From positions 32,001 to 96,000 of the forward strand of contig OZ245033.1 of the NCBI GenBank assembly GCA_965224025.1: a DNA stretch of 64,000 nucleotides, read 5' to 3'. Below the pieces are notes generated by a model. That model searched no databases. It saw only the letters and a list, made by a program, of their open reading frames with translations, and was not told the DNA's origin. A program made the position numbers and the translations under genes. The DNA comes from Candidatus Multivorans sp. Lineage in GTDB: Bacteria; Acidobacteriota; Thermoanaerobaculia; Multivoradales; Multivoraceae. Position 1 is the stretch's first letter, and every line of letters starts with the position of its first letter. Of the stretch, positions 1,572 to 6,655 are shown one piece after another.

Positions 1572-2240
1572 ATGAAAGTCCGCGGCGCCGCCCTGCCCGC
1601 GGCCGCCGTGGCGGTCCGCCTCCTCTCCCAGACCCTCACCGCCTCCTACCGCCTGCACCGCCTGGAAGGCGCCGGGCACCTCGACCGCGTCCTCGACCCG
1701 CCGGCCATGCTCGCGTGCTGGCACGAGCAGTTGGCGCTCTCCCTGCTCCTCGTCCGCCGGCGGCTGCTGCCGGCCGGCGGACCAGTGTCCATCCTCTCCA
1801 GCCACTCCGCCGACGGGGCACTGGCGGCGCGGGTCGCCCATGCCTGGGGCATCCGCGTCACCCGCGGCTCGACCTCCCGGGGCGGCCGGGAGGCGGCGCT
1901 CACCCTCTACCGCGAGCTCGTCAAACACCGGTCGACGCTGCTGCTCATGCCCGACGGTCCGCGTGGACCGGCGCGTACGCCGAAGGCCGGGAGCATCGTC
2001 CTGGCGGCCATGTCCGGCGCGCCGATCGTCCCCGCCGGCCTCGCCGCGTCACGCAGCCTGAGGTTGAGGAGCTGGGACCGCATGATCGTCGGCGCCCCGT
2101 TCACGCGAGTGGCGGTCGCGGTCGGGGAACCGATCGTGCTCGATCGCGGGTCTACCGACGACCAGCGGGAAGAGGCCCGGCTCGAACTCGGCGCCCGGCT
2201 CGACGACCTGACCGCGCGGGCCGGCCGTCTGCTCCCTTAG
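1572..2240 (+). CDS. DUF374 / lysophospholipid acyltransferase family protein
   Basis: CWHEQ, SHSADG, RGSTSRGG, MPDGPRGP and SWDRM motifs. Confidence 0.85.
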   Translation: MKVRGAALPAAAVAVRLLSQTLTASYRLHRLEGAGHLDRVLDPPAMLACWHEQLALSLLLVRRRLLPAGGPVSILSSHSADGALAARVAHAWGIRVTRGSTSRGGREAALTLYRELVKHRSTLLLMPDGPRGPARTPKAGSIVLAAMSGAPIVPAGLAASRSLRLRSWDRMIVGAPFTRVAVAVGEPIVLDRGSTDDQREEARLELGARLDDLTARAGRLLP

Positions 2241-2319
2241 AGCAGGACTGGGTGCGCCCACTGGGACTCTCCACCCTTTAGCAAGTGTGTTTTGGGGAGG
2301 CTGCTGCGGGTCAGGGAGG

Positions 2320-3573
2320 TCATGCGACCTGGGCATGGCATCGCTTGTTGGGGTCGAAGAGAGTTCGGTCTCGGAGCATGGCGCAGGCGACGCCGAGGAG
2401 TCGGTCGACGAGTTGTCTGATGGCGCGTCCGTGCGTCTTTCCCTGGGCTTTCATGGCGTCGTACTTGGCGCGGCTGATCGGGTCATGCTCGATGGCGACT
2501 CGTCCCCAGTGATAGACGGCGTCGCTGAGGTGTTCGTTGGCGGCGAGTCGTCGCATGACGATGAGCTTCTTGCCGGACTTGACGGTCACCGGCGCCACTC
2601 CGCAGAGGCAACGCAGTGCCTCGTGGTCTCTGCGGCCCAGGCTTTGATCGGCCTCGGAGAGCAGGGTGGCGAGGCCGACCTTGCCGAGTCCGGGCAGCGA
2701 CCTGAGGATGGCGGCGTCGCTCGGCTTAGGGGAGTCGTCGTCGTTTTCCCGTTGGGCCGGGGCCTCGAGTGCGCGGGTCATCCGCTCCAGCCGCTTGTCG
2801 GCGTCGGCGAGTTGGCGGCAGACGGTGTCGAGCACCGGCCGGAGGAGTCCTATGTGTTCGACGGCGGCCTTAACGGTGTCCGGGGAAACGGCGATCGGCT
2901 CGGCCCGCAGTTGATCGCGCAGTTGGGCGGAGGTCAGGCGCCGGATGCGGTGTTCCTTGAGCAGTTTGGCGAGCGTGGCTTCGCGCAGCCGTCGAGCCTT
3001 GCCGGGGGTCGGCGCCAGTCGCCACAAGGCCAGCGCGAAGGGCGCCGACACCTCGTTCTTGACCACGGCGAGAAACTGCGGGTAGTAGCGCCAGAGCTGG
3101 TCGCGGACCTGGTTCTCCAGGCGGTTCTTCTGGTTGACCAACTGCTTGCGGGCGCGGGACACCTCGCGCAGCATGACGATGGCGGCATCGGATGGTTGCA
3201 CGCGGTTCAGGCACTCGGGGTCGGTGCGAAGCGCGGCGGCGAGCACCCGTGCATCGCGGCGGTCATCCTTGGCGCCGGCGACGGAGAAGCGGTCCCTGAA
3301 GCGGTCGAGCTGCTTGGGGTTGATCGAATGGACGGCGAAACCCCGCTCCAGGAGAGTCTCGACCACCGGTCCGTGCGGCACCTCGATGGCGACGCCGATC
3401 TCGTCCGGAGACGTCGGTCGGGTATGTCCAAGGAGCCAGTCGGCCATGGCGGCAAGTCCCTTGCCGCTGTGGTCGAACGCCCGCTCCCCCCTCACCTTGC
3501 CGTCCCGATCCAGCACACACACGTGGTGGGTCTCGGACCCCCAGTCCACGCCGACGAACCACGTCCTGGTCAT
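2320..3573 (-). CDS. IS110 family transposase (DEDD RuvC-like recombinase)
   Basis: GVDWG..AIEVPHG..KDDRRDA (DEDD), SLPGLG, APVTVKSGK (catalytic Ser); AAGGAGG RBS before ATG 3573. Confidence 0.95.
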   Translation of the reverse strand: MTRTWFVGVDWGSETHHVCVLDRDGKVRGERAFDHSGKGLAAMADWLLGHTRPTSPDEIGVAIEVPHGPVVETLLERGFAVHSINPKQLDRFRDRFSVAGAKDDRRDARVLAAALRTDPECLNRVQPSDAAIVMLREVSRARKQLVNQKNRLENQVRDQLWRYYPQFLAVVKNEVSAPFALALWRLAPTPGKARRLREATLAKLLKEHRIRRLTSAQLRDQLRAEPIAVSPDTVKAAVEHIGLLRPVLDTVCRQLADADKRLERMTRALEAPAQRENDDDSPKPSDAAILRSLPGLGKVGLATLLSEADQSLGRRDHEALRCLCGVAPVTVKSGKKLIVMRRLAANEHLSDAVYHWGRVAIEHDPISRAKYDAMKAQGKTHGRAIRQLVDRLLGVACAMLRDRTLFDPNKRCHAQVA

Positions 3574-3604
3574 CTCGTCCTCCTTCTCCCTTGCGGTAGT
3601 GTTG

Positions 3605-3960
3605 CCTGGTCGGCATGCCGCGTTGCCTGCCCGTACCTGTACTGGTGCTCTAAGGCACTGACTCTCCACTGGGCGTCCAACGCGGCGAAGCAGCCAGGGC
3701 ACGGGTCCCAGCCAGGTGCTCGAAGCACAGTGCGCCGGTGGTCGCTCCTGGCTGCTTGCCGACCTTCCTTCAGTGACTCCGGCAGGCCGGAAACGAAACC
3801 GACCGGCGGTCCCGGCTGCGGAAGCTGCCGGTCCCGCGGAAAACGGCAGACCGTTTCCCGCCGGACCTTGGAAAACCGGCAAGCCGGTTTCCCACAGCTA
3901 CCGCAGCCGCGACGGCTACTAGTCGATTCCACCTCTCTCAACGACCCACCAGAATCCACC
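3605..3960 (-). ncRNA. IS110 bridge RNA (target-binding and donor-binding loops at about 3608-3764)
   Basis: Stems 3608-3615/3757-3764, 3617-3625/3678-3686 and 3690-3698/3747-3755; guide segments match the target and the donor junction; outer RNA ends are estimated. Confidence 0.82.
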
Positions 3961-3973
3961 CGAGAAAGGTACA

Positions 3974-4052
3974 GGTGCGCCGGCCGTTGCGCGGGCCTTC
4001 TGGCCCGCGACTGGGTGCGGCCCTCTGGCCGGCATCCGGCGCGAAGCGCCGG
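3974..4052 (+). repeat. Right part of the REP cluster interrupted by IS110
   Basis: GGTGCGCCGGCCGTTGCGCGGGCCTTCTGGCCCGC followed by CTGGGTGCGGCCCTCTGGCCGGC. Confidence 0.8.
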
Positions 4053-4081
4053 CGTCTGGCTCACCGTGAAACCCGCGACAA

Positions 4082-4090
4082 TGCTAGAAT
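4082..4090 (+). promoter_or_regulatory. Putative extended -10 promoter element
   Basis: TGCTAGAAT (TGn-TAGAAT) about 70 nt upstream of ATG 4163. Confidence 0.45.
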
Positions 4091-4162
4091 CCGACGGCTT
4101 TCGCCTTGCCTTCCGTGCTGGGCGGGGTCTTGAACCATGTCCAGGCATCGTCTCTAATCGCC

Positions 4163-6655
4163 ATGTCTCTCCGCTCCGGGCTTACCGCGCTGCTCATCGC
4201 GGCCGCGCTGATCGCCGCGCCCGGGGAGGCGATCGTCTACGTCACGCCGACCGACGAGTCGTTGGTGGACCGGTCGCCGGTGATCGTCTTCGGCGAGATT
4301 CTGGCCGCGGAACCGGCGCCGGTCGACGGACTGCTGTCGACCGACTTCATGTTCCAGGTCGAAGACGTGCTGAAGGGGTTCGTCCCGGGCAGCATCATCG
4401 TCGTTCGCCAGCCGGGCGGCCGCAGGTCGGACGGGCTGGTCGGTTCGGTCATGGGCTTGCCGACTCTGGCCGAGGGCGACCGCGTGCTGCTCTTCCTCGA
4501 TCCGGCGAACGCCGTGTACCGGACGGTCGAGTTGTCCCTCGGCATGTTCTTCGAGGTGCCGGTGCGCGGCGGCACGGTGCTGCTGCGCGAGGCGTCGCTG
4601 CGCGAAGACATGTCCCCGCCCGGCAGCCCGGCGGCTCGGCGGCAGCCAAACCAGCCACGCGAGGCGGAGCGCTTCCGGCGCTGGATCGCCGACCGGGCCA
4701 GCGGCCTCGAGCGGGCGGCCGACTACTTCGCGCCTGAACTGGGCGAGAACCCGGCGGCCGTCGCCGAGGCGTTCCGGCTCACCGTGTCACCGGGCGAGTG
4801 CGACCGCGTGGGCGTGCCCGTCCGCTGGCGGGAGTTCGACCGCAACCGCGGCGTCGGTCTGGTGGTGCAGGCCGGAGGTCAGCCCGGTGTGCCGGGCGGC
4901 GGCATGGCCCAGGTACTTGCCGGTATGCGGGCCTGGAACGGCGATCCGCGGAGCCGCACGCGACTGATCAGCCTGGGCAGGTCGAACGAGGAGTTCTCGC
5001 TCAAGGTCGACGAGCAGAACTCGATCAGCTTCGAGGATCCGCACGACGAGATTGCGGGTTCCTTCAATCCGCGGCTCGGCGGCATTCTGGCCATCAACTG
5101 GGTGTTCTTCTACTGCGGCCAGGTGACCGAGCCGCACCGGATTCCGGGAGGCGGATCGCGGCAGGCTCTGCCGATCGTGGAGTCGAACATCACGACGCAG
5201 GACGGGTTCGAGGACTGGTTGGCCGCCAGTGCGGACCCCCGCCGCGACTTCGAGGAGATCATCGGCCACGAACTCGGCCACGCGCTGGGGATCAACCACG
5301 CCTGCGACCCGTCGGGGGGCTCGCCTTGCGATGAGGTGACGAACGAGGCCCTGATGCGCGCGAATGTCCACGGGGACGGGCGCGGCGCCGCGCTGAGCCG
5401 GGACGACCGGAACGCCGTGCGCGCCCTCTACCCGGAGATCGGCCCGGTGGGCCCGGTGGCGCCGGCGGCGGCGACCGACCTGACGGTCTCCGCGATCAGC
5501 CAGAACGAACTCGAACTCCGGTGGCGGGACCGCTCCGGCGACGAGACCGGCTTCGACATCTACGAGCGGATGGTCGACAGCGACTTCGAGCGCATCGCCA
5601 CCCTGGAGCGGAACAGCACTTCGGTCGTGATCCAGAACATCCCGCCCGCGACCTACCGCGCCTACCAGGTCGTGGCGCGGAACAACCGCGGCAGCTCCGA
5701 GCCGACACCGGAAGCGGGCGCCACGACTCTCGCTGGAGTGGCCGCCTGCGTGGAGGACGGCGACACGTTGTGTCTGAATGAGGGTCGCTTTCGGGTCGAA
5801 GTGCAATGGGAGACCGACAAGGAAAGCGACCGGGGCGATGCCGAGCCCTTGACCAACGACTCGGGCGATTTCTGGTTTTTCTCTCCGGACAACATCGAAC
5901 TCGTGGTCAAGGTCCTGGACGGGTGCGCCTTCAACGAACGCTTCTGGGTGTCCGCCGGCGGCTTGACCGACGTGAAGGTCATCATGACCGTGATCGACTC
6001 CGCGACCGGAGTCGCCGCGACGTACTACAACCCGCCGGGCACTCCCTTCCTGCCGGTTCAGGACAACGAGTCCTTCGCCGTCTGCTCCCAGGGACAGAAC
6101 CTGTACGGTCAAAGCCGGTACCTGCTGCCGGCTGGAGAGATGGAGTCCGTGCGCGGCGGCATGAACCGGGCGTCCCGGTTTGGTGAGCCGCTTACCGGAT
6201 CGCTCCGTCCCGGTTGGGCCGGGCTGCCCCAGGAAGAAGGCGGCGCCTGCGAGGTCGACGATCTCACGCTCTGCCTCGAAGGCGGCCGCTTCGCGGTCCA
6301 CGCGCGCTGGGAAACGGAAGACGGCCGCGGTGACGCCACGGCCTGGCCGCTCACCCGGGACACCGGCCTCTATTGGTTCTTCGGTCCGAACAACGTCGAG
6401 ATGGTGATCAAGGTGCTCGACGGGTGCGCGCTCAACGGCCACCGCTGGGTGTTCGCGGCTGGACTGACGGACGTGGCCGTGACGATGACGGTCATCGACA
6501 GTGAGACCGGCGAGAAGAGGGCCTACGAGAACCCCGCCGGCACCCTGTTCCAGCCGATCCAGGACGCGAAGGCGTTTTCCTGTTCGGCGCCGGCGCCGAC
6601 GGCTGCGGCAGGCGCTCGAGATCCTGGTCCGCATCCACGCGAAGCAGCGCGGTAG
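4163..6655 (+). CDS. Secreted zinc metalloprotease (matrixin/M10-like) with FN3 domain and two C-terminal WFF-KVLDGC domains
   Basis: Signal peptide; HELGHALGINH; Met-turn ALM; FN3-like LRWRDRSGDETGF; two CL..GRF.V..W...FWFF..KVLDGC repeats. Confidence 0.85.
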   Translation: MSLRSGLTALLIAAALIAAPGEAIVYVTPTDESLVDRSPVIVFGEILAAEPAPVDGLLSTDFMFQVEDVLKGFVPGSIIVVRQPGGRRSDGLVGSVMGLPTLAEGDRVLLFLDPANAVYRTVELSLGMFFEVPVRGGTVLLREASLREDMSPPGSPAARRQPNQPREAERFRRWIADRASGLERAADYFAPELGENPAAVAEAFRLTVSPGECDRVGVPVRWREFDRNRGVGLVVQAGGQPGVPGGGMAQVLAGMRAWNGDPRSRTRLISLGRSNEEFSLKVDEQNSISFEDPHDEIAGSFNPRLGGILAINWVFFYCGQVTEPHRIPGGGSRQALPIVESNITTQDGFEDWLAASADPRRDFEEIIGHELGHALGINHACDPSGGSPCDEVTNEALMRANVHGDGRGAALSRDDRNAVRALYPEIGPVGPVAPAAATDLTVSAISQNELELRWRDRSGDETGFDIYERMVDSDFERIATLERNSTSVVIQNIPPATYRAYQVVARNNRGSSEPTPEAGATTLAGVAACVEDGDTLCLNEGRFRVEVQWETDKESDRGDAEPLTNDSGDFWFFSPDNIELVVKVLDGCAFNERFWVSAGGLTDVKVIMTVIDSATGVAATYYNPPGTPFLPVQDNESFAVCSQGQNLYGQSRYLLPAGEMESVRGGMNRASRFGEPLTGSLRPGWAGLPQEEGGACEVDDLTLCLEGGRFAVHARWETEDGRGDATAWPLTRDTGLYWFFGPNNVEMVIKVLDGCALNGHRWVFAAGLTDVAVTMTVIDSETGEKRAYENPAGTLFQPIQDAKAFSCSAPAPTAAAGARDPGPHPREAAR

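Follow-up and report, generated by a model that had tools for sequence, protein, structure and literature searches.

Bridge recombinases and their bridge RNAs were reported in 2024, together with an analysis of thousands of orthologues (Durrant et al., PMC11208160). The pattern described there for the IS110 group is a long left end (LE) combined with a short right end (RE). In IS621, the first loop of the RNA is directed against the target and the second one against the donor; in each loop, 8-9 nt of the 5′ side pair with the bottom strand and 4-7 nt of the 3′ side with the top strand (PMC11208160). The handshake bases, located directly 3′ of the right target guide (RTG) and the right donor guide (RDG), pair with the respective other DNA after strand exchange (Hiraizumi et al., PMC11208158). 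In the IS1111 group, the guide RNA lies in a long right end, and subterminal inverted repeats of 7-17 bp are present (PMC11208160). Here, a stretch of 64,000 nucleotides from Candidatus Multivorans sp. (contig OZ245033.1, positions 32,001 to 96,000; the window) was analyzed. Its segment 2266-3975 is very probably an autonomous IS110-group insertion sequence which finds its landing site via its own bridge RNA. It is a clear new example of the system published in 2024 and not a new type of system; NCBIfam already names its protein RNA-guided.

With IS621 (PMC11208160, PMC11208158, PDB 8wt6) the element has in common the pair of protein domains, the catalytic D-E-D-D residues plus serine, and the long LE with a short RE. 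In both, the RNA lies in the LE with the target loop followed by the donor loop, target and donor have the same dinucleotide core, and the 3′ guides are followed by handshake bases. Also shared are a -35 hexamer in the RE and a -10 hexamer in the LE (both putative here) and a target in a repetitive extragenic palindromic (REP) sequence, here a REP-like one. The 5′ guides comprise 9-10 nt here and 8-9 nt in IS621, the 3′ guides 5-7 nt and 4-7 nt, respectively. In contrast, the protein is distant (phmmer E 7.6e-12 in two stretches) and has 417 aa compared to 328 in the solved chain (8wt6), the core is CC instead of CT, and one basal stem encloses both loops. The LE of 400 nt contains a leader of about 210 nt ahead of the RNA core, which holds a nested repeat, and the host is not Escherichia coli but an uncultured Acidobacteriota lineage whose closest records are Candidatus Multivorans.

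The transposase of ISCro4 (PDB 9t56) is a further solved relative (E 4.3e-10), of which only the C-terminal 140 residues align. The recombinase family and the RNA-guided logic are also common to the IS1111 group, but here the RNA lies upstream of the gene, as the sole match of the covariance model R1 (see below) in the window, and the RE has only 54 nt; the element can be assigned to the IS110 group and not to IS1111. ISPpu10 of Pseudomonas putida is similar in that its insertions are all found in one conserved intergenic repeat with a GC-rich stem-loop 5′ of the paired target; this stem-loop was shown to add specificity (bioRxiv 10.64898/2026.03.19.712850).

Boundaries, recombinase and target site

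The element, its parts and the two target halves are located as follows in the window:

2266-3975, minus strand: IS110-group insertion sequence of 1710 bp, counting one CC core (3974-3975); its ends are placed where the similarity of 12 copies stops
3574-3973, minus strand: LE, non-coding, 400 nt
2320-3573, minus strand: recombinase gene, 417 aa plus stop, catalytic residues D10, E64, D104, D107 and S333 (Pfam, NCBIfam, alignment with IS621)
2266-2319, minus strand: RE, 54 nt, its terminal 9 nt (2266-2274) being the left donor half GTGGAGAGT
3974-3975, minus strand: CC core at the left end, reading GG on the plus strand; CC is found at both ends of 12/12 copies
2264-2265, minus strand: right copy of the CC core (string check and comparison of 12 copies)
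3976-3983, minus strand: left target half (LT), which reads CCGGCGCA in element orientation, forms the 3′ arm of a REP-like unit and is identical to the guide bases 3731-3738
2260-2263, minus strand: right target half (RT), CAGT in element orientation

The host genome (5.14 Mb, G+C content 67.5%) contains 12 full-length copies, which are 97-100% identical and whose similarity ends exactly at the bases equivalent to 2266 and 3975. The boundaries 2266-3975 proposed in the initial annotation are thereby fixed independently. In element orientation, the consensus of all 12 copies reads gCCGGCG[C/T]A followed by CC-TGTACC on the left and GGAGAGT followed by CC-C[A/G]G on the right. The left flank is GCGCA in nine copies and GCGTA in three, and the right flank is CC-CAG in 11/12 and CC-CGG in 1/12. 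The same site and CC at both ends occur in all of them, which shows a site-specific element whose core is CC and whose insertion duplicates nothing beyond this core. The initial annotation had named the CC core, present in both target and donor, and had given the insertion of other copies at unrelated sequences as a refutation; this is not what is seen, as all 12 full-length copies share the site.

Beyond these, two copies lacking a part of the LE and several truncated ones were found. Four of the full-length copies are 100% identical over 1710 bp, lie at unrelated chromosomal positions and are each located within their own REP unit. The match to the recombinase is uninterrupted over 417 aa in ten copies, and the gene has frame defects in two of the 12 full-length ones. 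The identical copies and intact frames suggest a recent movement of the element.

The recombinase matches PF01548 (9.6e-35) and PF02371 (2.4e-12) as well as the NCBIfam model NF033542, "IS110 family RNA-guided transposase" (177.2 bits, cut-off 140). In an alignment with IS621 (PDB 8wt6), D10, E64, D104, D107 and S333 stand opposite the catalytic residues whose roles were named by Hiraizumi et al. (2024; PMC11208158). Judged by its sequence, the protein is a DEDD/Ser recombinase with the domains and catalytic residues expected of an IS621-type system.

The exact 13-mer target CCGGCGCACCCAG occurs unoccupied 40 times in the genome, compared to about 1.8 times expected from base composition, and a relaxed pattern occurs 57 times; this agrees with the many landing sites which the initial annotation had claimed. 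The core CC is present once in the free sites. Most of these are located at the 3′ end of a GCCGGC-N6-GCCGGC hairpin inside longer recurrent units, which suggests a REP-like host repeat as the target, and a few look intragenic. The hairpin GCCGG...CCGGCG was also considered as a requirement for insertion, but it is no more common at occupied sites (12/17) than at free exact sites (25/40). Neither such a requirement nor a structural gate like that of ISPpu10 is therefore supported here.

The insertion sits amid a cluster of partial REP units (2240-2265 and 3976-4030) between two open reading frames on the plus strand, one ending at 2240 and the other starting at 4106. Near-target sequences were found at 2248-2259 (CTGGGTGCGCCC), 12 nt off, and at 4010-4022 (ACTGGGTGCGGCC). 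Solo LE remnants are also present in REP targets. At G000 C1:550050, 14 nt of the LE follow GCCGGCGTA-CC, and about 100 nt of a short-leader variant were found at G000 C1:5037673-5037774.

Furthermore, a second, distant IS110-family element was identified in 14 copies of about 1666 bp (G000 C1:111512-113178 and 13 more), 31% identical in the N-terminal domain. The flanks on its left vary, but the right flank is conserved (CTGCGCGGCAGAA; nCTGCGCGGCAGAA) and belongs to the same composite host repeat, of which it is the neighbouring part. In two copies this flank runs on into the REP unit of the first element, so that two IS110 families use adjacent parts of one repeat.

Predicted bridge RNA and its covariation in relatives

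Within the LE, the following RNA features were predicted:

3608-3764, minus strand: bridge RNA core, 157 nt, with a basal stem (3757-3764/3608-3615) enclosing both loops (minimum-energy fold, model R1, covariation)
3689-3756, minus strand: target-binding loop with the left target guide (LTG) at 3730-3738 (CCGGCGCAC), cap hairpin 3716-3728, RTG at 3707-3711 (CUGGG) and handshake bases 3705-3706 (AC)
3617-3686, minus strand: donor-binding loop with the left donor guide (LDG) at 3660-3669 (GUGGAGAGUC), cap hairpin 3645-3658, RDG at 3636-3642 (GUACAGG) and handshake bases 3634-3635 (UA)

The LE folds with -220.8 kcal/mol (z = -6.59), and none of 100 shuffles was equally stable. In the minimum-energy fold of 3590-3780 (minus strand), a basal stem surrounds two units, each consisting of a stem, a large internal loop and a small hairpin. 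The stems are 3747-3756/3689-3698 in the target unit and 3678-3686/3617-3625 in the donor unit, and each loop is capped by a GUGC...GCAC hairpin. The two large internal loops, the similar small hairpin on each of them and the order of the target loop 5′ of the donor loop, as in IS621, had all been proposed in the initial annotation and are found in this fold at the same positions.

On the 5′ side of the target loop, CCGGCGCAC equals the top strand of the LT plus the first core base (9 nt) and would therefore pair with the bottom strand. CUGGG on the 3′ side complements CC-CAG (5 nt), its first three bases (CUG) being complementary to the CAG of the RT and its last two pairing with the core. 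In the donor loop, GUGGAGAGUC on the 5′ side corresponds to the end of the RE plus the first core base (10 nt), and GUACAGG on the 3′ side complements CC-TGTAC, the start of the LE (7 nt). The donor guides thus read the RE-CC-LE junction, which exists only in the circular form, in the same polarity. Loop order, polarity and guide lengths agree with the model published for IS621 (PMC11208160, PMC11208158). All guides of the copy in the window match its own target and donor perfectly. The underlying strings of the initial annotation were confirmed in a string check, both at the ends (CTGGG at 2261-2265, GACTCTCCAC at 2265-2274, GTACAGG at 3969-3975, GTGCGCCGG at 3975-3983) and internally (CCCAG at 3707-3711, GTGCGCCGG at 3730-3738, GACTCTCCAC at 3660-3669, CCTGTAC at 3636-3642).

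Jointly, the four guide matches were found in 0/2000 dinucleotide shuffles of the LE interior. Individually they are weak, as single matches were reached in 91 (LT), 1226 (RT), 22 (RE) and 269 (LE) of the 2000 shuffles; for the RT query the longest observed match is an unrelated 6-mer (CGCCCA), so that the 5-nt RTG itself is not measured by this value. It is the position in the loops and the covariation in relatives which give the matches their weight. In Rfam 15, searched at a permissive threshold with 2000-4300 on both strands, neither the bridge RNA nor the nested repeat gave a match up to E 1.

Genomes of the same genus contain elements with recombinases 55-59% identical. A scan of one genome per species added 80 further loci with 53-92% identity from records of Candidatus Multivorans, Thermoanaerobaculia, Vicinamibacterales, Rhodothermales, Azospirillum and others. 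The covariance model R1, built from four sequences, finds the RNA upstream of the recombinase gene in 83/84 sources, nearly always ending about 35-40 nt before the start codon. No RNA match was obtained for L119, because this locus begins 33 nt before the gene. In the 64-kb window R1 has a single match, at 3609-3763 with 173.6 bits. Paired cells amount to 93.9% (40 distinct rows), compared to 29.5-44% when the partners are slid, the observed values were reached in 0/500 shuffles, and 25 of 36 base pairs show compensatory changes on both sides. A covariance model of homologous IS110 ends had been suggested as a check in the initial annotation, and its outcome favours the proposed RNA.

In some relatives, the ends are defined independently by several copies. 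In one genome (G010), ten copies lie in the same REP site, and the RE differs by one base (GGGGAGT), which is mirrored in the donor guide. In another one (G016), where two copies define the ends, the target loop is very different; the right flank CC-TTT was predicted from the RNA alone and then seen as ...GGGGAGT-CC-TTTTCATG. The single copy in G013 is located at GTCGGCGCA, and its target loop carries UCGGCGCAC.

For the comparison across all rows, the left end was placed upstream at an exact match to CC together with the complement of RDG bases 1-5, and the right end downstream at the first site agreeing with the nine LDG bases in all positions or all but one. The ends could be located in 79/84 rows at consistent distances, and CC, which was not imposed by the search, follows the RE in 79/79. 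The other five rows (L031, L029, L106, L127 and L098) were excluded from the flank counts. Whereas the donor guides are near-constant (GUGG[G/A][G/A]AGU and GUACAGG), the target guides vary widely and form 27 guide classes among 69 distinct insertion events. Changes in the RE (GAGAGT, GGGAGT, GGAAGT, TAGGGAGT) are mirrored in the LDG of the relatives.

The target guides follow the flanks. On average, 6.3 of 8 positions match between LTG and cognate LT, compared to 3.6 of 8 for non-cognate pairs, and 2.75 of 3 compared to 0.94 of 3 between RTG and RT. When the flanks were shuffled among the classes, the observed total was reached in 0/20000 permutations. The register of the LTG differs by one base: in this lineage LT + C + U precedes the cap hairpin, in the Vicinamibacterales class LT + CC + U. 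A single register for scoring against the LT fitted this lineage only and was replaced by scoring with two registers.

In the relatives L084, L086, L117 and L029/L034, the same ends are 3.7-4.2 kb apart, which implies extra passenger DNA downstream of the recombinase gene.

Proposed mechanism and alternative explanations

The bases following the 3′ guides fit the handshake described for IS621. The AC behind the RTG is able to pair with the GT ending the RE, as is the U behind the RDG with the A ending the LT. In relatives, A follows the RTG in 78/79 rows, pairing with the T at the tip of the RE. In 68/69 events, the last base of the LT is the complement of the base behind the RDG; where the LT ends in C, this handshake base may belong to the LE, so that only lineages with an LT ending in A or G are unambiguous.

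A putative promoter would be formed only in the circle from two hexamers at the ends:

2279-2284, minus strand: putative -35 hexamer TTGCTA of the junction promoter
3966-3971, minus strand: putative -10 hexamer TACCTT of the junction promoter

Joining of RE and LE gives TTGCTA-17 nt-TACCTT. Among 42 distinct RE/LE pairs, a hexamer starting with TTG is found at this spacing in 40, and the LE hexamer is TACCTT in 29 and TACCCT in seven. We infer that the pair may correspond to the published junction promoter, with a weak match to the consensus.

By analogy with IS621, the element would leave its site as a circle, in which the joined ends would assemble the promoter TTGCTA-17 nt-TACCTT driving the RNA. 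The recombinase subunits would then hold both loops, while the RNA connects a REP-like site CCGGCGCA-CC-CAG with the circle junction. Strand exchange would take place at the CC core, aided by the handshake bases (AC with the GT of the RE end, U with the A of the LT end), and lead to an insertion with no duplication beyond the core.

The internal matches could instead be debris, the LE having absorbed fragments of REP units and of the element's own ends, so that the identity is historical and the protein alone picks the target. In favour of this, the genome is rich in GCCGG-type hairpins (2746 raw starts of the pattern GCCGG-N3-9-CCGGC, a rough upper bound as overlapping starts are counted repeatedly), a 9-mer match to the LT region appears in 91/2000 shuffles, and a separate structured repeat did get absorbed into the LE. 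However, in relatives at very different, non-REP sites, these two loop positions likewise hold the matching sequence (27 classes, 0/20000 permutations). In addition, the 3′ guides are complementary and not identical to the flank, which debris would not yield, and the donor guides match a junction that is absent in the integrated state, which makes this explanation extremely improbable. Hardly more probable is that the folded LE merely acts as a leader controlling translation or stability of the recombinase, with no separate guide RNA. Such a role would suit an RNA which ends about 35 nt before the start codon with no terminator-like site in between, and earlier literature, as cited in PMC11208160, gave IS110 ends a regulatory role; the covariation of the loop bases with the flanks and with the element's own ends is left unexplained by it, and the two roles can coexist.

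The system could also be real but its lineage no longer mobile, the copies being fossils of past activity or products of duplication. This is unlikely, though less so than the two explanations above. Neither a circle nor a precise empty site was seen in the assembled contigs, frame defects affect the recombinase gene in two full-length copies, and further copies are truncated or lack a part of the LE. Against it stand the four copies identical over 1710 bp at unrelated positions, each in its own REP unit, the ten copies with an uninterrupted 417-aa match and the perfect match of the guides in the window to target and donor.

Several points weigh against an active bridge-RNA element or reduce the force of individual results. 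Only 7/12 positions of the putative junction promoter agree with the E. coli consensus, and its -10 hexamer overlaps bases bound by the RDG, which gives its conservation a second explanation. A promoter scan of 2200-4100 returned no sigma-70-like site, although such a scan cannot see a promoter split between the ends; the same scan gave three weak terminator-like sites. None of the sequencing runs listed with this sequence is recorded as RNA. Neither a circle junction nor a precise empty site was found in the assembled contigs of four runs, which cannot show circles or transcripts. The 5-nt match of the RTG is not significant alone. As the ends of the relatives were found with the donor guides, the donor matches there are partly given by construction, and both LTG registers were allowed, for cognate and non-cognate pairs alike. 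The pairing figures flatter the structure somewhat, since the alignment was fitted to the model and its sequences are related. Finally, guide base 3732 (C/T), the only polymorphic guide base among the 12 copies, is not significantly associated with the target variant GCGCA or GCGTA: copies with the T guide lie at two of four GCGTA sites and at three of 11 GCGCA sites. Action in trans and U-G wobble would allow for this, yet the result lends no support.

A joint between 2233 and 4068, present in X1 and X2 (one sample), was considered as a possible excision and rejected. It shows 15 differences over 134 bases with unknown letters in between and was read as a diverged relative without the insertion.

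For an autonomous element guided by its own bridge RNA, the features of an IS621-type system that can be tested on sequence are supported, with the junction promoter as a putative one. The proposal of the initial annotation, a further IS110 bridge-RNA orthologue aimed at a REP-like repeat, is borne out by the domains and catalytic residues, the two-loop RNA in the LE, its polarity and the covariation of guides and flanks over 27 classes.

Leader repeat, mini-elements and significance

The leader between the tip of the LE and the RNA core has about 210 nt here, compared to 43-54 nt in relatives outside the lineage, and folds as a long hairpin. Its centre is formed by a nested repeat:

3798-3920, minus strand: Y-shaped structured repeat of about 120 nt in the leader, near-invariant among relatives in which the neighbouring LE has diverged

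The repeat consists of two GGGAAAC(C)GG...CCGUUUUCC hairpins within an outer stem. Further occurrences were found at G000 C1:2474162-2474283, 3672584-3672705, 4048788-4048902 and 1301954-1302034. With 86-88% identity, the repeat is also located beyond istB of an IS21-family element in the host genome, G016 and G005. Of 41 related genomes, it occurs in 10, all from a single genus.

In two otherwise complete copies of the element (G000 C1:598849-600478 and 3853427-3855044), most of the leader repeat (about 75-85 nt) is missing, whereas the bridge RNA is retained; the recombinase match of these copies covers residues 1-409 of 417. They can be regarded as natural deletion variants of the leader.

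In the related genome G024 (including L145, L147 and L149), at least eight mini-elements were found which consist only of the LE tip and the Y-shaped repeat, with CC on both sides. They lie in the same REP target, as GCCGGCGCA-CC ... GGCAGCTT-CC-C[G/A]GT, and keep the LE tip matched by the RDG, while their right end does not match the LDG. Up to E 1e-40, no full-length element of the family was found in this genome, and Pfam scans around the nested repeat gave ordinary genes (CoA-transferase, sulfatase, RF-1 domain) and no transposase.

The mini-elements could be deletion products or non-autonomous derivatives. A more far-reaching interpretation is that the nested repeat is not passive cargo and that the mini-elements are natural non-autonomous derivatives, which the bridge recombinase moves or repeatedly generates via partial donor recognition. 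We consider this doubtful. If true, the mini-elements would be the genomic counterpart of the "half-match" recombination reported in vitro, and the Y-shaped repeat itself would act on the expression of the bridge RNA.

The element adds a natural bridge-recombinase orthologue with a CC core, an enzyme of 417 aa and a high-GC Acidobacteriota host; the genome sequence shows its target and donor as well as the handshake bases and the free landing sites. It leaves the understanding of the mechanism as it is. With 27 natural target-guide programmes on a near-constant donor, the clade of about 80 relatives could be used to compare guide rules and to obtain enzymes for high-GC hosts. Only the side observations might lead somewhere new: the repeat shared with an IS21-family element, the CC-bounded mini-elements and the second IS110 element might bear on the decay of such elements or on their non-autonomous offshoots.

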